Positions 8,214 through 19,871 of a stretch of 64,000 nucleotides of DNA are shown piece by piece. Numbering within the stretch: position 1 is the first letter of the stretch; each line of letters opens with the position of its first letter. The notes below the pieces were generated by a model, which worked only from the letters and a program-made list of their open reading frames with translations, was not told the origin of the DNA and made no database searches. The translations under genes and the position numbers were made by a program. The stretch comes from an uncultured Bifidobacterium sp. (GTDB taxonomy: Bacteria > Verrucomicrobiota > Verrucomicrobiia > Limisphaerales > JADLHS01): NCBI GenBank assembly GCA_964561105.1, contig CAZLOH010000009.1, positions 22,679 through 86,678 on the forward strand, given 5' to 3'.

Positions 8214-8891
8214 ATGGCCCGCTTGCTTCGTAAAAACGGGACGGATGAACCCGAGATTTTGGAACTAAACCTCGGCGTCAATCATTTCGGCCGCAATCCG
8301 GAGAATCATTTCCGCATCAACCACCCCACGGTGTCGTCGCGCCATTGCGATCTCACGCTCACGGCCGACGGCGTGTTGGTTCATGATCACGGCTCGACCA
8401 ACGGCACGTTCATCAATGGCGAGCCGGTCGAGCAGGGTGTCTTGCGGGCGGGCCAGATTCTGCGTCTGGGCGACGTGGAGTTGTTGGTGGAAACGATTGA
8501 CGTGCATATCGCCATTCCGGTGATCGAGCGCCCGATCCCGGCGCCGCCCGTGGTGTTGCCGGACGGCGACATTCTCTGTCCCCGCCACCCCGAAGCTCCT
8601 GTGGCGCATCGTTGCACGCACTGCCATTCCATTCTGTGCGACCGATGCGTCAAGCGCCTTCGCCGCCGGGGTGGTAAAACGCTCAAACTGTGCGCGCTTT
8701 GCAGCCATCCCGTCGAACTGCTGGGCCGGAGAAGCCAAAAAAGCGAACTCTGCTTTCGTTGCTCACCGCCACCATCAAGCTGCCGTTCTTGCGCGGCAAG
8801 AAGGAGGATTGAGCGGTTGAGGATCATTCGGCTCCAACTGGATGGAAAGGTCTGGAGGCATATCCTTGAGCGGAACGAGTGCGCCAATTAG
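8214..8891 (+). CDS. FHA domain protein with Cys-rich (zinc-ribbon-like) C-terminal region; 3' end probably frameshifted
   Basis: FHA core 'FGRNPENHFRINHPTVSSRHCDL...GSTNGTFING'. Cys cluster 'CPRH...CTHCHSILCDRC...CALC'. The tail after about 8727 has poor codon bias, and an alternative frame ends at 8812. Confidence 0.75.
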   Translation: MARLLRKNGTDEPEILELNLGVNHFGRNPENHFRINHPTVSSRHCDLTLTADGVLVHDHGSTNGTFINGEPVEQGVLRAGQILRLGDVELLVETIDVHIAIPVIERPIPAPPVVLPDGDILCPRHPEAPVAHRCTHCHSILCDRCVKRLRRRGGKTLKLCALCSHPVELLGRRSQKSELCFRCSPPPSSCRSCAARRRIERLRIIRLQLDGKVWRHILERNECAN

Positions 8892-11519: not shown

Positions 11520-12833
11520 TCAGGTTGCACCGATGGTTTGCAACATCGGCAGGATGACATTTTGGACGAAGGTGGGATGAAAGAGCCAATATGCGGGCGC
11601 GGCAGTGAAGCAGAACATGAACAACCAACCGCGCCAACCGTGACCAAGGCCCGAGGCGCGACCAGCACGGCTGCGTTCCATCAAGACACCGATGCCTTGC
11701 AACAGAAAATAGCCGAACGGCAATCCATACCCGCCCCGGGCGGGAAACGAAATTGCGAGTTCGTGGATGACTCCCGAAATGGCAAAGACGCCGAGTGTCG
11801 CCCAGGTGATACCGGCGCGGCGAGCCAGTGGTCGAAAGGTGAGATCGTGAACGAGTTTGTTGAATGCGGTATTCCAGTGTACGCCCCAGAAATCAGCGAG
11901 CGAGGTGGCGGTGGCGGGCGATTGCATCAACGGCTTGGCGGGAACTCCGGCACGTTGCCAGGCGAGAGCGGCAAGGTGAAAAGCGCCGAAGTGTAGAATC
12001 AAGGTGAGGCTGAACATGGCAAGCCAGGCGTTGGCAATGCTGTTGGGCGTGAATGTTGTATGAGCCGCCAGCCAGAGAAGTGCGATTCCAGCAACTAAAC
12101 GAGTCGTCGCAAACAGCCAATCGCGAGGTTTGGGAGTCGTGGCGTGATGGCCGGTCAAAAACAACTTTGCATCCATGCCCGGCCAGGCGAACAGATAGCC
12201 CAGCGTGCGCGTGAGTCCGGCTTGATCAATTGTTGTCCGAGCTCGTCGCCAGGTCAGCCATTTGCAACCGGCAAACATCGCGGTGACAAAGAGCCACATG
12301 AAGATCCAGTTCGGCAAGTGATTACGGAAGGGTAGCGTCGCGATGAGCAGGAGTGGAAGCGGCAGCCAGTCGAGCCACCGATTACGCGCGGTGACCGTGC
12401 AGTTGCCGCTGGCACAATTTCGATTCGCGGCGATGTGGCGATAAACAGCGCGGTAGATCGGCATCATGCCGGGGATGCGACTGAGCAGCCACAGCGGCCA
12501 AAGCCACCAGACGTGGCGGGCAATCTCCATTGCGGCATCGGCGCCGCCAAGTTCGCGTCCGTCGGGAAGTTCCAGAACCATCTCGGTGAAAACCGGGGCG
12601 GGGGTCCTCCCGGGAGCGCCGGCATCTTGCCGGCGTGTTTCTATTTTGGGTAATAACCTGCCGGCGAGACGCCGGCGCTCCCGGGCCTGCAGCGTTGTCA
12701 GTGTAAAACCGTGACCCACCAGCGTCCGTTCCATCCGTTGCGCCCACCCCACACAGAACGCGCACTCGCCGTCGTAACAAACCAAACCGGCGGCGGGTTG
12801 TCTGGCGTTGTTATCTGTTATTTCCGTATTCAC
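11520..12833 (-). CDS. Fusion protein: DCC-type thiol-disulfide oxidoreductase (DUF393) N-domain plus MBOAT_2/wax-synthase-like membrane O-acyltransferase C-domain
   Basis: 'YDGECAFCVGW' (DCC motif). C-terminal 'SLADFWGVHWNTAFNKLVHDL' and 'SGVIHELAISF' (MBOAT_2-like His). GTG start. Confidence 0.7.
   Translation of the reverse strand: MNTEITDNNARQPAAGLVCYDGECAFCVGWAQRMERTLVGHGFTLTTLQARERRRLAGRLLPKIETRRQDAGAPGRTPAPVFTEMVLELPDGRELGGADAAMEIARHVWWLWPLWLLSRIPGMMPIYRAVYRHIAANRNCASGNCTVTARNRWLDWLPLPLLLIATLPFRNHLPNWIFMWLFVTAMFAGCKWLTWRRARTTIDQAGLTRTLGYLFAWPGMDAKLFLTGHHATTPKPRDWLFATTRLVAGIALLWLAAHTTFTPNSIANAWLAMFSLTLILHFGAFHLAALAWQRAGVPAKPLMQSPATATSLADFWGVHWNTAFNKLVHDLTFRPLARRAGITWATLGVFAISGVIHELAISFPARGGYGLPFGYFLLQGIGVLMERSRAGRASGLGHGWRGWLFMFCFTAAPAYWLFHPTFVQNVILPMLQTIGAT
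12609..12685. repeat. REP-like palindromic element embedded in frame in the DCC domain
   Basis: Perfect 15-bp arms: cccgggagcgccggc (12609..12623) and gccggcgctcccggg (12671..12685). The inner arms pair imperfectly around an AT-rich loop. Translates on the coding strand as '...ETRRQDAGAPGRT...'. Confidence 0.85.
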
Positions 12834-12864: not shown

Positions 12865-13398
12865 TCACCCGCTGATGCCCAACAGTTTCTTAATCTTGTC
12901 GGCCGCTTTCACAAATCGCGTTAAGGCTCCGGTCGGCCAGAGGCGGATTTGGCCATACCAAGCTGTGGTGGTATCGAAAAAGTCGGCCAGTTCTTTCAGC
13001 TTTTGCTCGGTGTATTCGTCGGTTTCCTTGTCCTTGTGCGCTTCGGTCGCGCAATCGCGCAGCATTGCGACCGTGGGATCAATCTCGCGCTTCTTCCGTT
13101 CGTCCAGCACCACGCGGAACATTTCCCAGACCTCCTTCATGCTCTCGAAATGATCGCGCGAATCACCGAGCACATGGACGCGCTTCACAATACCCCAGCC
13201 CTGAAGTTCCTTGAGGCTGTTGCTGACGTTCGAGCGGGCCACACTGAGGGTTTCCGTGATTTCCTCGGCATGAAGCGGTTTGGGCGAAATAAAAAGCAGG
13301 GCGTGAATTTGGGCCACGGTGCGGTTGATGCCCCAGCGCGTGCCCATCTCGCCCCAGTGGAGGATGAACTTCTGTTGGACTGGACTGAGTGTCGGCAT
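12865..13398 (-). CDS. GbsR/MarR-family winged-helix transcriptional regulator
   Basis: 'WGINRTVAQIHALLFISPKPLHAEEITETLSVARSNVSNSLKELQGWGIV', a typical GbsR-type wHTH. First gene of the minus-strand cluster. Confidence 0.8.
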   Translation of the reverse strand: MPTLSPVQQKFILHWGEMGTRWGINRTVAQIHALLFISPKPLHAEEITETLSVARSNVSNSLKELQGWGIVKRVHVLGDSRDHFESMKEVWEMFRVVLDERKKREIDPTVAMLRDCATEAHKDKETDEYTEQKLKELADFFDTTTAWYGQIRLWPTGALTRFVKAADKIKKLLGISG

Positions 13399-13404
13399 GT
13401 TTCC

Positions 13405-13430
13405 TTAATTTCTGTCTGGACAGAAATTAA
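13405..13430. promoter_or_regulatory. Perfect 12-bp inverted repeat (ttaatttctgtc-tg-gacagaaattaa); candidate GbsR-like operator
   Basis: Starts 7 nt upstream of the gbsR-like ATG, in the divergent intergenic region. An extra half-site 'gtttctgtc' lies at 13442..13450. Confidence 0.6.
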
Positions 13431-13512
13431 AGTCACGGCTGGTTTCTGTCAATCCATTTCTGGGGAGAGAATTAATCTTGAGCCGCAGTCGGGAAGATTG
13501 CATTGATGCGGC

Positions 13513-14931
13513 ATGCAAAGCCATTTTCCATCGGTTTGCGGAGCTATTATTTGCCTAGGGTTGCTGACCGGCCATTCAGGTTGGGCGGCGGAGTCCCTGG
13601 TGACCAATCAGGTGCATGGGGATTTTCATGAGCTGAACGACAATGGCGCGTGGTCATGGTTCATGGATGAGCGGGTGATCGTGGATCAAGACCGGTTGAT
13701 CGTCGGTTCAACGCGGGCGAACGGGGTTTTTCGCGACAAGGACAAGCCGGGTTGGGGCAATGTGGAACTGGCGATCTTGAATCTGAAGACTGGTGCGAAG
13801 CGGGTGGTGGTGCTGCACGAGAAGCTGGAGCAGGACGATCATAATAATCCCGGTTTGCTTGTCCTGCCGGATGGCCGATACCTCGCGGGATATTCCAAAC
13901 ATGGGCAGGAACCGCGCGTTTATTTCCGCATCTCGAAGCGCCCCGGCGATCCATCCGAATGGGAGGCGCGTACTGAATTCGTGACGCCCGGCGTGAAAAT
14001 CGAGGGTGGCGGTTTCGGGCGTGGCGACGTCTTCACTTATTGCAATCCCATCCGGCTTTCGCAGGAGCAGGGGCGGATCTATATGTTCCATCGCAGCGTC
14101 GGCCTCGACCCCAACTATCTTGTCTCGGATGATGCGGCGCGGACGTGGCGATATGGGGGGAAGCTTTACGAAGGATTGGATGGGTACAGTCCCTACACGA
14201 AATACATCTCGAACAATCGCGACACGATCCACTTCGTGGCAACGGAAGATCATCCGCGCAATTTTGACAATAGTCTCTATCACGCCTTCATCCGGGCCGG
14301 AAAAATTTATCGCAGTGATGGGACCGAAGTCGCGCCGCTTTCCACGACGACCAATTGCGCCGTGCATCCGTGGGATTTCACCCGGATCTACCAAGGCGGC
14401 ACGAATAACGTCGCGTGGATGACGGACATCCATCTCGACAAGGAAGAGCGCCCCGTCGTCTTGTTCACAGTGCAGGTGAATGGTGCTGGCTTGCCGCGCG
14501 GGAAAGGCGGCGATGACCATCGGTTCCATTATGCGCGTTGGGACGGGAAGAAATGGACGGAGCGCGAAATCGCTTATGCCGGCAAACGGCTTTATCCCGG
14601 TGAAGACGACTATACGGGCTTGGGCGCGATTGATCCGCAGAATCCGGATGTGGTTTATCTCTCCAGTAATGCCGATCTGAAAACCGGTCAGCCGCTCATC
14701 AGTGCGGCGGATGGCAGGCGGCATCATGAAATCTTCCGCGGCGAAACCAAGGACGGAGGCACGACCTGGACTTGGACGCCGATCACCCAAAACTCGACGA
14801 TGGACAACCTCCGCCCGCTCGTCCCCATCTGGAAGGATACCCGTACGGCCGTGGTCTGGATGCGGGGAACGTATCGCGCCAATCGCGGTGAGTGGGCCAC
14901 CAAGGTGGTGGCGACGGTGCTCAAACCCTGA
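13513..14931 (+). CDS. Secreted BNR/sialidase-fold (BNR-4-like) beta-propeller protein
   Basis: Signal peptide 'SVCGAIICLGLLTGHSGWA'. 'DNGAWSWFMDERVIVD' and repeated 'D.G.tW' motifs. Confidence 0.6.
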   Translation: MQSHFPSVCGAIICLGLLTGHSGWAAESLVTNQVHGDFHELNDNGAWSWFMDERVIVDQDRLIVGSTRANGVFRDKDKPGWGNVELAILNLKTGAKRVVVLHEKLEQDDHNNPGLLVLPDGRYLAGYSKHGQEPRVYFRISKRPGDPSEWEARTEFVTPGVKIEGGGFGRGDVFTYCNPIRLSQEQGRIYMFHRSVGLDPNYLVSDDAARTWRYGGKLYEGLDGYSPYTKYISNNRDTIHFVATEDHPRNFDNSLYHAFIRAGKIYRSDGTEVAPLSTTTNCAVHPWDFTRIYQGGTNNVAWMTDIHLDKEERPVVLFTVQVNGAGLPRGKGGDDHRFHYARWDGKKWTEREIAYAGKRLYPGEDDYTGLGAIDPQNPDVVYLSSNADLKTGQPLISAADGRRHHEIFRGETKDGGTTWTWTPITQNSTMDNLRPLVPIWKDTRTAVVWMRGTYRANRGEWATKVVATVLKP

Positions 14932-15013: not shown

Positions 15014-16576
15014 ATGAAACCTCAAGTCGAAATCTACGATACGACTCTGCGCGACGGGGCGCAGGGCGAAGGCATCAACTTCTCGGCCGTGGACAAGCTC
15101 CGCATTGCCGAAAAGCTCGATTCCTTTGGGATTCATTACATTGAAGGCGGCTGGCCGGGGAGCAATCCGAAGGACATGGAGTTCTTCCAACAGGCGGCCA
15201 AACGCAAATGGAAGAACGCGCAGATTGCGGCGTTCAGCATGACGCGGCGCAGAGGTGTGGCCGTGGAGCAAGACGAGTTGATGCGCCTGATTCTCGAAGC
15301 CAAGACGCCGGTCGTGACCATCGTGGGCAAGACGTGGTTATTGCATGTGACTGAAGTGTTGCGCGCCAAGCCGGATGAAAATCTTGCCATGATCGGCGAC
15401 ACGATCCGCTACCTGAAGGATCACGGCAAAAAGGTCATCTACGACGCGGAACACAGCTTTGATGGTTTTGCGGACGAACCCGAATACGCCCTTGCCACGT
15501 GGCAGGCGGCGGAGAAGGCGGGCGCGGATTGCATCGTGCTGTGCGAAACGAACGGCGGGCGGCTGCCGAGTGAAGTCGCGAAGACGGTCGCCTTCGCGAA
15601 GTCTAAATTGAATTGCCGCCTCGGGGTTCACACGCACAACGATTGTGGCTTCGGTGTGGCCAATGCCATCGCGGCGGTGGAAGCGGGCGCGACGCAGGTG
15701 CAGGGGACGATCAACGGGTTTGGCGAGCGCACGGGTAATTGCAATCTCATCAGCGTCATTCCAACGCTGGAATTGAAGATGAAATTGCGCAGTGTGCCGG
15801 TGAAATCGCTGCCGAAGCTCAAGGAACTTTCCGAGTTTGTGAACGAAGTGGCGAACATCCGGCACGACGTGCGGGCGCCGTGGGTGGGGCAGACGGCGTT
15901 TGCGCACAAGGGCGGGATGCACGTTCACGCGATTGACCGCGTGGGCCGCAGTTACGAACACATCAATCCCGAGGCGGTCGGCAATTTCCGCCGCGTGCTG
16001 GTGAGCGACATGTCCGGGCGCACAAACATCCTGATGAAGGCGAAGGAACTCGGTTTCAAGCTCACTCCCGATGCTCCTGAGACTCGTGAAATCACCGCCA
16101 AGGTCAAGGAACTCGAAGCAAGCGGCTATGAATACGAGGCGGCGGAAGCGTCGCTGGCGTTGCTCATCCGCGGCATCCTGGATCACAACCCGGAGTTGTT
16201 GTTCACGGTGGACACGTATCACGTCTCCATGCGCCGCGATAAAAAAGAATCCATCTGTGAAGCCACGGTGCGCGTGCGCGTCGGTGATGAAGTCGCGCAT
16301 ACCGTTGCTGAAGGTGATGGTCCGGTGAATGCGCTGGATGGCGCGCTGCGGCTCGCGCTGCGAAAGTTCTTTCCGAAGTTGAAGAGCATCGAGCTGACCG
16401 ACTACAAGGTCCGCATCATCAACGGCACGACCGGCACGGCCGCCAAGACACGGGTGTTGATCACGTCCAGCGATGGCAAACGCGAATGGGGCACTGTCGG
16501 CGTGAGCGAGAACATCATCGAGGCCAGCTTGCAGGCGCTGGTGGACTCGCTGGAATACGCGTTGTTGAAGAAATGA
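15014..16576 (+). CDS. cimA: (R)-citramalate synthase (LeuA/CimA family)
   Basis: 'VEIYDTTLRDGAQGEGINFS', 'HTHNDCGFGVANAIAAVEAGA', and a C-terminal LeuA-dimer-like regulatory domain. ATG at 15014 gives about 520 aa. The ORF-track N-extension overlaps the previous gene. Confidence 0.85.
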   Translation: MKPQVEIYDTTLRDGAQGEGINFSAVDKLRIAEKLDSFGIHYIEGGWPGSNPKDMEFFQQAAKRKWKNAQIAAFSMTRRRGVAVEQDELMRLILEAKTPVVTIVGKTWLLHVTEVLRAKPDENLAMIGDTIRYLKDHGKKVIYDAEHSFDGFADEPEYALATWQAAEKAGADCIVLCETNGGRLPSEVAKTVAFAKSKLNCRLGVHTHNDCGFGVANAIAAVEAGATQVQGTINGFGERTGNCNLISVIPTLELKMKLRSVPVKSLPKLKELSEFVNEVANIRHDVRAPWVGQTAFAHKGGMHVHAIDRVGRSYEHINPEAVGNFRRVLVSDMSGRTNILMKAKELGFKLTPDAPETREITAKVKELEASGYEYEAAEASLALLIRGILDHNPELLFTVDTYHVSMRRDKKESICEATVRVRVGDEVAHTVAEGDGPVNALDGALRLALRKFFPKLKSIELTDYKVRIINGTTGTAAKTRVLITSSDGKREWGTVGVSENIIEASLQALVDSLEYALLKK

Positions 16577-16581
16577 TTCTC

Positions 16582-16657
16582 AACGCAAAGCCGCAAAGCC
16601 GCAAAGATGCCACGAAAGAGTATTTTTGCGTCCTTCGCGCCTTTGCGTCTTTGCGTT
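16582..16657. repeat. REP-like hairpin built from tandem 8-mers (cgcaaagc x3 against ctttgcgt x2)
   Basis: Terminal 9-bp perfect stem aacgcaaag (16582..16590) / ctttgcgtt (16649..16657), with imperfect inner pairing. Lies between the cimA stop and the valS ATG and ends 7 nt before the ATG. Confidence 0.7.
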
Positions 16658-16664
16658 AATTGTC

Positions 16665-19600
16665 ATGATCGAAATTCCGAAGGCATACGAGCCACAATCT
16701 GTCGAAGATAAGTGGTATCAGTTCTGGTTGGAGAATTCGTGTTTTACCGCCGACCCGGCGCGCGTGAGCGGCAAGCGCCCGGCGTATTCCATCGTCATCC
16801 CGCCACCGAACGTCACGGGCATGCTCCACATGGGGCACGTGCTCAATAACACCATCCAGGACATTCTCAGTCGCAAGGCGCGCATGGACGGCAAGGAAGT
16901 CCTCTGGCTGCCGGGCACGGACCACGCGGGCATCGCCACGCAGGTGCAGGTCGAGAAGGCGCTGAAGAAAGGGGAAAAGAAAACCAAATACGATCTGGGC
17001 CGCGAAGAATTCCTCAAGCGCGTGTGGGCGTGGAAGGAAGAAAAAGGCGGCATCATCATCAACCAGCTCAAGAAGCTCGGGTGTTCGTGCGATTGGACGC
17101 GCGAACGCTTCACGATGGACCCGGAGTATTCGCGCTGTGTGCAAAAGGTGTTCGTCGAGCTTTACAAGCAGGGTCTCATCTATCGCGGCAAGCGCATGGT
17201 GAACTGGTGCCCGGTGTCGCAGACCGCGCTCTCGGACGAGGAGGTGGAAATGAAATCCCAGAAGGGTTTCATGTATCATTTTCGGGTGGAAGCGGTGGAG
17301 CAGGATGGAACGCCCGTGAAAGTTGCGGCGCGGCCCCTCACCCCATCCCTCTCCCCTTCGGAAGGGGAGAGGGTGGCCGATAGGCCGGGTGAGGGGAAAT
17401 CGGGTGGTCCGCAGATTGATTCCGACGGCCGTATCTGGCTCACCATCGCAACGACGCGACCGGAGACCATCCCGGGCGACACGGCGGTGGCGGTGAATCC
17501 AAGAGACCCGCGTTACGCGCACCTCATCGGCAAACACATCGTGCGACCGTTGCCGCCGGAATTGCCGCACGAACAGAAGCTCATCCCGATTATCGGCGAC
17601 GAGCACGTGGATTTTGAATTCGGAACGGGCGTGCTCAAGGTGACGCCGGCGCACGACAAGGCGGACTTCGACATCGGCCAGCGGCACAAGCTGAGCATCG
17701 TGGACATCATGAATCCCGACGGTTCCATGAACGAACTGGCCGGCACGGATTTGAAAGGACTGGATCGGTTCAAGGCGCGCAAGGTGGCGGAGGAAAAGCT
17801 CACCGAACTCGGCGCACTCGTTGAAGCGAAGCCGTACGAAAACAACGTGGGTTTCAGTCAGCGCGCGGATGTGCCGATCGAGCCGCGCCTGAGCGAGCAA
17901 TGGTTCTTGAAGTATCCGGCGGTGGAGCAATCCAAGGCGTGCGTGGAGCAGGAGGACGCGGGAGAACGGAGCGCCGATCTCCGATCCGGCGCGTTGGGAG
18001 AAGCTACAGGAACACGCCGGGTCGGAGACCGGCGCTCCGGCAAAATGCGTTTCCATCCGCAGCGGTGGGCGAAGGTTTATGACCACTGGCTGACGAACAT
18101 TCAGGACTGGTGCATCAGCCGTCAGCTTTGGTGGGGGCATCAAGTTCCGGTCTGGCGACCGCCCCAAGATTGGGGAACTAAGGAGCAAATAATGGACGCG
18201 CTCCATTATTTGCAGGATGTGAAGCGTTCAAAACGGCCTGATGTAGTTGTCAATTTTCCGGAAACGGGAAAAACATCGACAAACGAAAAAGGTGAGCCAC
18301 TAACCGGAATTACAATTGAAGTTTGTCTCGATTCGTCGGCAAGCGATGTTGCAAAAAAACTTGAAGAGTTTGGTTTGGTTCAAGACCTCGATGTGCTCGA
18401 CACGTGGTTCAGTTCTTGGCTCTGGCCGTTCGCCACGATGGGCTGGACGGGTGACAAATCCCAAGACTCCAACAATCCAACACTCCAGGCTTTCTACCCA
18501 ACCACCGACCTCGTCACCGGGCCGGACATCATCTTCTTCTGGGTCGCGCGCATGATCATGGCCGGCTACGAATACATGGGGGAGATGCCGTTCAAGAACG
18601 TGTATTTCACCGGCATCATCCGCGACAAGCAGGGTCGCAAGATGTCCAAGACGCTGGGCAACTCACCCGACCCGCTGGAACTCATCGCGAAGTATGGCGC
18701 GGATGCGTTGCGCTTCGGCACGATGCGCAGCGCGCCGCTCGGTCAGGACGTGTTGTTCGACGAGAAGGACGTCGAATTGGGCCGCAACTTTTGCAACAAG
18801 CTATGGAATGCGTGTCGTTTCCGCCAGATGCAAAGTGCTGCCGACTTGCAGTCGGCAGCAGGTGACACCTCCCGACAGAATGTCGGGAGCACATTCGAAG
18901 TGCAGGGGGAGATCAATCCCAGTCTGCTCACGTCCGATGACAAGTGGATTCTGCTCAAGCTGCACGAAGCGATTCGCGAAATCACCGAGGCACTGACCAC
19001 CTATAATTTCAGCACGGCGGCGCAGGCGTTGTATCGGTTTTTCTGGAGCGAGTATTGCGACTGGTATGTCGAGGCGAGCAAGGCAGTGTTGGTTAAACAA
19101 GTGATTGAGATAAATGAGTTAAATCAGTCTGGCGAGGCTCGAACGGCAACCTCTCATTTAACCAGTCACTCATTTAACGGTTCAACCTCGCGCCGCGCGA
19201 ACACCCTCGCCGTCATTGATTTCGTGCTCTCACACACGTTGCGCTTGTTCCACCCGTTCCTGCCGTTCATCACGGAGGAGTTGTGGCACGGGATGGGTTA
19301 CGCGACGGACATGCCGGAAAATCAGGGGGGCAAGACCATCATGAACGCCCCGTGGCCGAAGCCGTTCGAACTCGAGTTCCGGGACGCCTACAGTCTCGAC
19401 GAGTGCTACCTGGAATTTGCTAATCAGAAATATGAAGTCGTGACGCGGGGACGAGATCTGCGGCGGATTGGAAACATCCAAGCCGGCAAGAAGGTGAAGT
19501 ATGTCCTCAAGCCGAGTCGCGAGATTCTCCCGCACGATGCCGAGGTCATCAAAATCCTGCTCAACGCCGAGGCGCTTGAGATCAACGAGAGTTACGCGGC

Positions 19601-19871
19601 GAAGAAAGGCACGCCGACCGCACACACGCCACTGGGGGAACTATTCCTGCCCTTGGAAGGATTGATTGATGTCGCGGCCGAGAAGGTGCGGCTGACGAAG
19701 GAGAAGGAAAAGATCGAAGCCGAAATCGAGAAGGTGAAACAAAAACTGGCCAATCCAGCGTTCACGCAGAAGGTGCCGCCAGCGGTCTTGCGGGAGCACG
19801 AGCAACGTCTGGTGGACTGGCAGGCGAAGCTGGAACATGTGAAGGCGGCGTTGGAGGCGTTGGGAAGTTGA
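16665..19871 (+). CDS. valS: Valine--tRNA ligase, unusually long (about 1068 aa) because of multiple in-frame insertions
   Basis: HIGH motif 'PPPNVTGMLHMGH'. KMSKS motif 'KMSKTLGN'. 'ATTRPETIPGDTAVAVNP', 'DWCISRQLWWGH', and a C-terminal coiled coil. ATG at 16665. Confidence 0.95.
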   Translation: MIEIPKAYEPQSVEDKWYQFWLENSCFTADPARVSGKRPAYSIVIPPPNVTGMLHMGHVLNNTIQDILSRKARMDGKEVLWLPGTDHAGIATQVQVEKALKKGEKKTKYDLGREEFLKRVWAWKEEKGGIIINQLKKLGCSCDWTRERFTMDPEYSRCVQKVFVELYKQGLIYRGKRMVNWCPVSQTALSDEEVEMKSQKGFMYHFRVEAVEQDGTPVKVAARPLTPSLSPSEGERVADRPGEGKSGGPQIDSDGRIWLTIATTRPETIPGDTAVAVNPRDPRYAHLIGKHIVRPLPPELPHEQKLIPIIGDEHVDFEFGTGVLKVTPAHDKADFDIGQRHKLSIVDIMNPDGSMNELAGTDLKGLDRFKARKVAEEKLTELGALVEAKPYENNVGFSQRADVPIEPRLSEQWFLKYPAVEQSKACVEQEDAGERSADLRSGALGEATGTRRVGDRRSGKMRFHPQRWAKVYDHWLTNIQDWCISRQLWWGHQVPVWRPPQDWGTKEQIMDALHYLQDVKRSKRPDVVVNFPETGKTSTNEKGEPLTGITIEVCLDSSASDVAKKLEEFGLVQDLDVLDTWFSSWLWPFATMGWTGDKSQDSNNPTLQAFYPTTDLVTGPDIIFFWVARMIMAGYEYMGEMPFKNVYFTGIIRDKQGRKMSKTLGNSPDPLELIAKYGADALRFGTMRSAPLGQDVLFDEKDVELGRNFCNKLWNACRFRQMQSAADLQSAAGDTSRQNVGSTFEVQGEINPSLLTSDDKWILLKLHEAIREITEALTTYNFSTAAQALYRFFWSEYCDWYVEASKAVLVKQVIEINELNQSGEARTATSHLTSHSFNGSTSRRANTLAVIDFVLSHTLRLFHPFLPFITEELWHGMGYATDMPENQGGKTIMNAPWPKPFELEFRDAYSLDECYLEFANQKYEVVTRGRDLRRIGNIQAGKKVKYVLKPSREILPHDAEVIKILLNAEALEINESYAAKKGTPTAHTPLGELFLPLEGLIDVAAEKVRLTKEKEKIEAEIEKVKQKLANPAFTQKVPPAVLREHEQRLVDWQAKLEHVKAALEALGS
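17344..17406. repeat. 63-bp nested palindromic element, in frame within valS
   Basis: Outer arms cccctcacc / ggtgagggg. Inner 12-bp perfect stem ccctctcccctt (17357..17368) / aaggggagaggg (17372..17383). Translates as 'PLTPSLSPSEGERVADRPGEG'. Confidence 0.85.
17967..18039. repeat. Palindromic element with 25-nt arms (23/25 complementary), within valS
   Basis: Left arm cggagcgccgatctccgatccggcg (17967..17991). Right arm cgccgggtcggagaccggcgctccg (18015..18039). Same core (ggagcgccg...cggcgctcc) as the element at 12609..12685. Confidence 0.85.
18185..18213. repeat. Perfect 12-bp stem / 5-nt loop hairpin within an AT-rich valS insertion
   Basis: gcaaataatgga-cgcgc-tccattatttgc. Confidence 0.8.
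18836..18889. repeat. Two adjacent perfect hairpins within valS
   Basis: tgctgccgact-tgc-agtcggcagca (18836..18860, 11-bp stem). ctcccgac-agaat-gtcgggag (18869..18889, 8-bp stem). Together they translate as 'AADLQSAAGDTSRQNVGS'. Confidence 0.8.

Follow-up and report, generated by a model that had tools for sequence, protein, structure and literature searches.

A BoxC-type palindromic repeat lying in frame within valS of a Limisphaerales-type verrucomicrobium

Introduction

Repeats called BoxC, PIT or TMECO are defined by the motif CCCTCNCCC-N3-6-GGGNGAGGG-N3-GGGNGAGGG (Holder et al. 2015, PMC4666352). Across 262 genomes of Proteobacteria the strict pattern has been counted 3610 times. Its copies in E. 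coli K-12 are without exception intergenic. The motif has no linkage to transposons and has been linked to local genome instability (PMC4666352). As single-stranded DNA the E. coli motif forms a stable purine-motif triplex in vitro; in vivo, a triplex was not detected, nor did the repeats show activity as promoters or terminators (PMC4666352). The same motif has also been interpreted as a G-quadruplex-hairpin switch (bioRxiv 10.1101/032615). Here we describe a relative of these repeats, a 63-bp nested palindrome (element A) located in frame inside valS, the gene encoding valyl-tRNA synthetase (ValRS), on a 64-kb stretch of DNA (contig CAZLOH010000009.1, assembly GCA_964561105.1), hereafter the window.

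Palindromic repeats inside reading frames are already known as a phenomenon. The Rickettsia palindromic elements (RPEs) are in-frame "protein-coding palindromes" (reviewed in PMC10969869; cited in PMC3733652). Intragenic repetitive extragenic palindromes (REPs) with GTAG or CGTC tags reach their highest number in a verrucomicrobium, Opitutus terrae, and X. oryzae, E. litoralis and S. alaskensis have them in tRNA synthetase genes (Di Nocera et al. 2013, PMC3733652). REPINs, which RAYT transposases mobilise, are described as extragenic (PMC8049555). A previous sequence-only reading of this DNA had called a REP-like peptide insertion in an essential tRNA synthetase unusual; the precedents in Rickettsia, O. 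terrae and three proteobacterial tRNA synthetase genes (PMC3733652, PMC10969869) indicate that this was overstated.

Results

Element A is a 21-codon nested palindrome in the editing domain of ValRS

The host gene was recognised by its Pfam domains and by the match of its product to the Thermus thermophilus enzyme (1GAX; E = 3e-180). Its product is identical to protein database entry P0001, and the ATG at 16665 agrees with the orthologue consensus MSEIPKAYEP. The features of the gene and of element A are as follows.

16665..19871, plus strand: valS, valyl-tRNA synthetase, 1068 aa (Pfam tRNA-synt_1, Anticodon_1, Val_tRNA-synt_C)
17334..17396, plus strand: element A, 63-bp nested palindrome encoding PLTPSLSPSEGERVADRPGEG, ValRS residues 224-244
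17334..17343, plus strand: left outer arm CCCCTCACCC, 10 bp, pairing perfectly with the right arm
17347..17373, plus strand: inner hairpin CCCTCTCCCCTTC g GAAGGGGAGAGGG, common to the plus- and minus-strand triplex motifs
17375..17386, plus strand: mini-hairpin GGCC GATA GGCC, 4 bp, the long second loop of the plus-strand motif and a mark of the subfamily
17387..17396, plus strand: right outer arm GGGTGAGGGG, third-strand block for the plus-strand motif
17335..17373, minus strand: BoxC/PIT/TMECO-type motif CCCTCTCCC-N9-GGGAGAGGG-ATG-GGGTGAGGG, found as a pattern match

The two inner arms, CCCTCTCCCCTTC (17347-17359) and GAAGGGGAGAGGG (17361-17373), pair over 13 nt around a single nucleotide, which is equivalent to a 12-bp stem with a 3-nt loop. 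The outer arms form 10-bp perfect terminal inverted repeats, as in miniature inverted-repeat transposable elements, and the left one, read on the minus strand, is GGGTGAGGGG, the third G-block of the canonical triplex motif. Element A begins on a codon boundary of valS, (17334-16665)/3 being 223. The sequence-only reading had reported the nested palindrome with the correct length (63 bp, 21 codons), peptide and inner stem; its coordinates (17344-17406) were shifted by +10, its outer stem was given as 9 bp instead of 10 bp and the mini-hairpin was missing from its description.

The predicted RNA fold of the 63-mer has an energy of -51.3 kcal/mol and a z of -5.2 relative to dinucleotide shuffles; none of 200 shuffles was equally stable, and shuffles of the window gave zero expected matches to the core pattern. 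Element A is therefore not a chance feature, and we rejected a chance palindrome on these two results. A search of the whole window against Rfam returned no family at gathering score, with just two chance-level matches in valS (E up to 1).

Compared with 1GAX, residues 211-253 of the window ValRS are extra and are flanked by residues 204 and 205 of T. thermophilus; they sit where the CP1/editing domain starts, in the turn of its first beta-hairpin. The block ATTRPET, which we take to be the threonine-rich editing-site motif of ValRS, lies at 17448-17468; the 17 codons that separate it from element A bear out the earlier statement that the palindrome sits just upstream. In an AlphaFold2 model built from 52 close relatives, the element-A peptide (residues 223-245), which follows strand 194-211 and precedes strand 257-263, had a predicted local distance difference test score (pLDDT) below 50, in an editing domain otherwise at about 85-90. 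Two further inserts described below (elements C and D) correspond to residues 726-747 and 823-837, which were likewise below 50. The peptide is thus probably a disordered loop, a reading weakened by the poor quality of the model overall (mean pLDDT 60.5, predicted template modelling score 0.40).

Element A belongs to the BoxC/PIT/TMECO family

On the minus strand, positions 17335-17373 read CCCTCTCCC CTTCCGAAG GGGAGAGGG ATG GGGTGAGGG. The three blocks CCCTCNCCC, GGGNGAGGG, N3, GGGNGAGGG are present in this order, with a chance expectation of 0. The first loop measures 9 nt against the published 3-6 nt; three of its bases on each side pair, the true loop is 1-3 nt and the stem is longer. The departure is from the letter of the pattern, not from its architecture. 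Counting G*G:C, A*A:T and T*A:T as allowed, all ten purine-motif triads (10/10) were permitted with GGGTGAGGGG lying antiparallel to GGGGAGAGGG, and this held on both strands. The finding of a motif on each strand with all triads allowed argues that the nested palindrome consists of two triplex-type motifs on opposite strands, built around one common hairpin, the plus-strand motif having an unusually long second loop. As single-stranded DNA, element A may form a triplex. The minus strand also matches the regular expression for a canonical G-quadruplex (G4), with the motif GGGGAGAGGGATGGGGTGAGGGG.

Alignment to E. coli with blastn located matches at 8411 places in 3639 of 5426 genomes, the best at 81.6% over 49 nt, and these matches were intergenic, under no annotated feature. 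Element A aligned block for block with the BoxC copy in the phnK-phnL spacer of E. coli.

The segment is an indel among ValRS orthologues

The 120 best ValRS homologues came from Verrucomicrobiota metagenome-assembled genomes (MAGs) named Limisphaerales, Pedosphaera or Verrucomicrobiia, with 66-78% identity and lengths of 934-1250 aa. At the DNA level, valS was sampled from 80 GTDB species representatives, the closest valS of which was 70% identical to that of the window, and from nine closer relatives; insert statistics were calculated over 90 loci. The segment from GFMYHF to ATTRPET measured 27 aa in about 45 of the 120 orthologues (e.g. GFMYHFKVQVAEEPNTWLTIATTRPET) and 40-111 aa in the others, and site A had the empty length of 27 aa in 43 of 74 loci. 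The peptide of the window occupied the site in about 13 of the 120. In some orthologues the same family appeared in a longer form with two hairpins (PLTPALSP...SPLPLGGGEGQGEG), and the remaining ones had at least seven other repeat-like peptides, among them GSSGRESAQTS..SRLTSAATEE, GQASSLSQT..GDRRDACPT, DATPSSH..GDGGVAAT, CSGAVSAPGSAVTDRRY and GSAGVSPA..AGGTPALPG. L081-L087 carry element A at the site and in the frame that it has in the window; the L088 copy has no left arm and the L089 copy is missing part of the inner hairpin. In agreement with the sequence-only reading, the segment is an indel in the ValRS alignment, absent from distant T. thermophilus ValRS as well as from the empty-site orthologues.

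In a neighbour-joining tree of the 120 homologues based on their conserved core, the carriers of element A were scattered among carriers of an empty site. The residues flanking each site co-varied with its filled or empty state, e.g. CVEQ...KMRFHPQRWAKV versus CVAEGRMKFHPERWAKT. Both patterns may reflect recombination or poor resolution of the tree, and the co-varying flanks hint at an allelic exchange of valS segments between lineages. Several GTDB/GenBank records with a Limisphaerales-type valS were titled Klebsiella pneumoniae, Akkermansia muciniphila, Bifidobacteriaceae, Haliangiales or Pseudomonadales (L004, L022, L023, L029, L031, L038 and L063 are among these); they are probably mislabelled or mis-binned MAGs.

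Copies outside valS are mostly non-coding and use mixed frames

Scanning metagenomes for the right half of element A (GGGAGAGGGTGGCC-N2-6-GGCCGGGTGAGGG) recovered the subfamily core in at least 120 contigs. Among the matches listed, most copies combined the CCCTC(T/G)CCC / GGGAGAGGG hairpin with the TGGCC-N-GGCC mini-hairpin and GGGTGAGGG; the left outer arm was present in only some of them and many were without it. Copies of the family outside valS were found in L024, L030 and L088, and 49 unit matches were counted in 1.5 Mb of related loci. These copies, in at least 120 contigs, several related genomes and, as BoxC, E. coli, support the earlier proposal that valS contains one member of a dispersed, REP-like repeat family and reads it through as a peptide.

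The same reading had suggested that such elements insert preferentially into reading frames, or are selected to persist there, for which no support was found. Among the matches listed, 18 of the 61 copies with enough context lay in a long frame and about 70% lay outside. Pfam confirmed three in-frame hosts: a MutL linker (L092), a GT4 glycosyltransferase (L095) and a DUF1015 protein (L137). The glycosyltransferase copy uses the same frame as the valS copy, whereas those in MutL and DUF1015 are in other frames and in the opposite orientation. Several other apparently coding copies look like read-through of spacers. Full nested copies were 54-63 bp long as matched and fell into all three length classes modulo 3. 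A query with a doubled 42-aa peptide retrieved 26 tiny hypothetical open reading frames and no ValRS, a result with little bearing on in-frame hosts. Mixed lengths, mixed frames and a majority of non-coding copies therefore indicate that the family is not built for reading frames, and that coding copies are the survivors of a filter.

The valS copy evolves as slowly as catalytic motifs

Orthologous copies of element A differed from that of the window at 1-6 of 63 positions, while their host genes differed at 18-28% of all positions and at 31-48% of third codon positions (element versus gene, binomial P from 6e-6 to 2e-2). Element A thus evolves 4-10 times slower than the average of its host gene and about as slowly as the catalytic motifs. 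At third positions it ranked 10th lowest of 924 sliding 21-codon windows, beside the HIGH-motif and WCISRQLWWGH regions, and its synonymous sites were frozen as much as its non-synonymous ones. Variable columns were concentrated in unpaired positions (5/11, compared with 6/52 paired; Fisher P = 0.017). One compensatory pair, U-A to A-U, separates the window clade (CCT..GAA) from L085-L087 (CCA..GAT); this single event combines a synonymous change with an E-to-D replacement. A shuffle control for pairs with both sides changed was not significant (414/500). The slow synonymous sites, the bias towards unpaired changes and the compensatory pair therefore argue for a constraint acting on the DNA or RNA and not on the peptide.

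In L088, the valS copy and an intergenic copy 2.9 kb away have in common CCCTCGCCCC and an ATCCGAT loop, and the valS copy retains the valS-specific GATA mini-loop. This combination suggests a partial conversion between copies.

valS carries further palindromic inserts at other sites

Comparison with 1GAX revealed three more unmatched stretches in valS besides element A, each with a palindrome; a fifth candidate lies in the same gene and another insert in a neighbouring one.

17967..18039, plus strand: element B, REPIN-like inverted dimer in frame (ERSADLRSGALGE..TRRVGDRRSG), z = -8.2
18834..18896, plus strand: element C, 63 bp, two hairpins, in frame (SAADLQSAAGDTSRQNVGSTF), fold z = -5.6
~19090..19178, plus strand: element D, A+T-rich imperfect palindrome in frame (VKQVIEINELNQSGEARTATSHLTSHSFNGS), fold z = -2.6
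18185..18213, plus strand: candidate fifth element, perfect 12-bp A+T-rich hairpin GCAAATAATGGA cgcgc TCCATTATTTGC, within valS residues 499-570
12609..12685, minus strand: relative of element B, in frame in a DCC1-like/MBOAT_2 gene, fold z = -7.4

The sequence-only reading had rightly named one insert in valS and overlooked the other three or four. Element B has 29-nt arms, 90% complementary, around a 15-nt loop and folds at -56.3 kcal/mol; its arms differ from those of L081 at 1 of 63 positions while loop and flanks diverge, and L083 and L084 have nothing inserted at its site. The four closest orthologues lack element C and have GGCGGC in its place. This is the cleanest comparison of a filled with an empty site, and no target-site duplication was seen there, 63 bp replacing GGCGGC. 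The site of element D is empty in L082 and L084 and holds the same family in P0026, P0036, P0068 and P0082. Overall, sites B, C and D were filled, empty or replaced among orthologues in the same manner as site A. The hairpin at 18185-18213 may be a fifth insert; it lies in hypervariable residues 499-570, the counterpart of which in Thermus is about 40 residues shorter.

Collectively, the 113 inserts at the four valS sites had a median fold z of -4.3, with 65% below -3. Control segments of the same length from the same genes had a median z of -0.04, with 0.9% below -3 (Mann-Whitney P = 7e-28). Relatives outside valS were found for 41 of the 113 within 1.7 Mb of sequence. Perfect hairpins of at least 10 bp reached 0.22 per kb in valS compared with 0.09 in its flanks (P = 3e-7). 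One uninterrupted frame was kept in all 73 valS loci examined, which argues that the inserts are translated rather than skipped. Across the whole window, a simple hairpin count showed no excess (12 versus 7-13 in shuffles), the signal being confined to valS and one neighbouring gene. The latter is a DCC1-like/MBOAT_2 fusion (11520-12833, minus strand) hosting a REPIN-like inverted dimer; relative to the L082 and L083 orthologues, the dimer adds about 17 aa and takes the place of about 12.

Other observations were made on valS and its surroundings. Seven of the 120 best homologues contain a whole LPD3 domain (large polyvalent protein-associated domain 3, PF18798) within ValRS, at site B in P0102 (aa 458-570) and after WWGHQVPVW in P0116 (L087:10001-13477, aa 533-644) and P0088 (aa 544-651). 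Tandem copies of one family, or two families side by side, were seen at site C of P0047, site D of P0064 and site C of P0088; such stacking is reminiscent of REPs clustered into intergenic arrays. In L082 (9541-9951), L084 (9579-9953), L086 (9474-9890) and L088 (9341-9757), the gene immediately preceding valS is a small PDDEXK_3 gene, which in the first three lies between an HMGL-like/LeuA_dimer gene and valS. The window has no such gene there, the gap at 16576-16626 being 50 nt only. Finally, an A+T-rich 12-14 bp palindrome, TTAATTTCTGTC tg GACAGAAATTAA, with an operator-like look occupies 13403-13432, in the spacer that separates the gene at 13513-14931 from a MarR_2-like gene (12865-13398, minus strand).

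Discussion

We consider it very probable that element A is a copy of a BoxC/PIT/TMECO-family repeat, of the TGGCC-N-GGCC subfamily, passively read through in valS. An ancestor of this Limisphaerales-type Verrucomicrobiota group would have acquired it inside valS, at the point where the first beta-hairpin of the CP1/editing domain turns. There it would have survived as its length is a multiple of three, the frame used has no stop and the position is probably a surface loop. Ribosomes would then read through it, adding a probably disordered loop of 21 residues to ValRS. Through the same selective filter, valS would have admitted a further three or four palindromes, at domain junctions and other loops, and its orthologues would have kept other repeat families at these very sites. 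The likeliest force conserving the sequence would be homogenisation against other genomic copies, a pairing-dependent correction of the arms, or both; direct selection on a hairpin, triplex or G4 structure would be the alternative. Of this account, the data show the family of the repeat, the indel, its persistence in frame, the re-used sites and the slow evolution; that the insert is translated, that its loop does no harm, how the copy came in and why it is conserved are inferred.

Several points weigh against this account. The mechanism by which BoxC-type motifs move is unknown in the literature (PMC4666352), no transposase or RAYT gene was present among the 20 window genes scanned with Pfam, and no target-site duplication was seen at the inserts compared, site A being embedded in older extra sequence. 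Family A is represented only once in the 64-kb window, which leaves the multi-copy status of the repeat in the source genome to be presumed from its relatives. Element A lies in frame in an essential gene, unlike the always intergenic E. coli copies, and its plus-strand second loop is 13 nt with a mini-hairpin instead of 3 nt. A mean pLDDT of 60.5 gives weak support to a disordered loop. Lastly, the case for homogenisation comes from the L088 genome only, and the valS-specific GATA loop retained there argues for vertical descent with a true constraint.

The palindrome might instead be kept in valS for its structure as a nucleic acid, a hairpin in the mRNA or a transient triplex or G-quadruplex in the DNA, with the peptide as a by-product. 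It could act as a brake on the ribosome or polymerase where the Rossmann fold meets the editing domain, or modulate the stability of the mRNA. Nucleotide conservation equal to that of catalytic motifs at synonymous sites too, substitutions falling mostly in unpaired positions, the compensatory pair, the nearly invariant arms of element B around a diverging loop, the location of all four inserts at loops or domain junctions and the stable triplex formed in vitro by a single-stranded oligonucleotide of the E. coli relative (PMC4666352) all agree with this explanation. However, about a third of close orthologues have nothing at this site and others have unrelated repeats, so that no specific structure is needed there. 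The compensatory change is a single event and the control for changes on both sides was not significant, ribosomes unwind hairpins in coding regions, and BoxC/PIT repeats showed neither a triplex in vivo nor promoter or terminator activity (PMC4666352). We therefore regard selection for structure as unlikely. Were the segment a functional ValRS loop specific to this lineage, binding for example tRNA or a partner, and the palindrome a coincidence, the good conservation of the peptide in about 13 orthologues and its position next to ATTRPET, presumed to be an editing-site motif, would be accounted for. The same DNA is nevertheless found between genes, and in other frames and orientations in unrelated proteins, and it matches E. 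coli BoxC. Synonymous sites are as frozen as non-synonymous ones, stem pairing was kept at the cost of an E-to-D replacement, the pLDDT is below 50 (in a poor model) and L088 and L089 carry partial deletions of the segment, all of which makes a functional loop very improbable.

GC-rich hairpins within coding sequences also call to mind programmed translational bypassing, known from the GC-rich "byp" hairpins of Magnusiomyces mitochondria and from phage T4 gene 60, or a removal of the insert from the RNA. The single open frame through all inserts in 73 of 73 loci speaks against skipping. All net insert lengths are multiples of three without stops, for which there would be no reason in skipped sequence, and no take-off/landing codon pair or stop codon flanks element A. 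We hold bypassing or RNA removal to be extremely unlikely. An assembly or binning artefact deserves mention, as MAGs make up most of the relatives, the source is one too and certain records plainly carry a wrong label, but the same site and frame in at least nine independent assemblies (ENA, JGI, NCBI, Logan), with normally diverged flanks, leave it with practically no credence. A bolder reading, which we regard as speculative and rather doubtful, is that valS of Limisphaerales-type Verrucomicrobiota is a preferred landing pad, where four to five domain-junction loops are repeatedly colonised, replaced and stacked by at least eight palindromic repeat families, and by the LPD3 domain in some lineages, with the arms held by a nucleic-acid constraint. 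If true, it would imply a site- or structure-directed mechanism of insertion and replacement for BoxC/REP-like repeats, or else selected coding-region hairpins, e.g. pacing translation between the domains of the enzyme.

The in-frame repeat of valS links two separate literatures, one on the BoxC/triplex repeats of enterobacteria, thought to be intergenic, and one on the coding palindromes of Rickettsia and Opitutus. What is new is that a BoxC-type family occurs in Verrucomicrobiota and in a coding location, that its architecture is double-sided and includes a mini-hairpin, that many repeat families re-use the same four or five sites of a single essential gene, and that the valS copy evolves very slowly. 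The orthologous in-frame copies offer a natural experiment, because coding and nucleic-acid constraints can be separated site by site. Purely through repeat cargo, ValRS varies from 934 to 1250 aa among orthologues 66-78% identical, and in the phylum Verrucomicrobiota such cargo can cause errors in sequence alignment and structure prediction as well as in domain annotation and phylogenetic marker sets.

Among known systems, REPINs resemble the inserts in having two inverted units, a long hairpin and populations of copies that persist over long times; the inserts are in frame here and no RAYT gene was found among the 20 window genes scanned. Intragenic REPs are likewise short stem-loop repeats or dimers that code for 20-30 residues in known proteins, in some genes twice. 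The 63-mer contains none of the tags GTAG, CTAC, CGTC or GACG; element A thus differs from GTAG/CGTC REPs in having neither a tag nor a known RAYT link, element B being closer to REP dimers. The likeness to BoxC of E. coli is closer. The blocks CCCTC(T/G)CCC, GGGAGAGGG and GGGTGAGGG are the same, the common "mm" variant CCCTCGCCCC occurs in relatives of element A, stems are conserved, loops variable and inverted pairs frequent, and copies are dispersed without a linked transposase, with an alignment of about 82% over 49 nt. Besides the coding location and the long second loop, element A differs from BoxC in its verrucomicrobial host, the strict pattern having been reported from proteobacterial genomes, in its two opposite-strand motifs sharing one hairpin and in its first loop of 9 nt with pairing extra bases instead of 3-6 nt. 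Like RPEs, element A is an in-frame segment of a conserved protein that is missing from orthologues, and both are palindromic repeats of unrelated housekeeping genes, which presumably tolerate them at permissive sites. With about 100-150 bp, RPEs are longer than the 63 bp of element A, and they belong to an A+T-rich obligate intracellular alphaproteobacterium. The likeness is one of description, sequence homology not being expected given composition and length, and the RPE reports (PMC10969869, PMC3733652) do not include several families re-using the same sites, as happens in valS. Since a GTAG/CGTC tag and, in the 20 genes scanned, a transposase are both absent, we do not file element A as a RAYT-mobilised REP but as a BoxC/TM-type repeat in an RPE-like situation.

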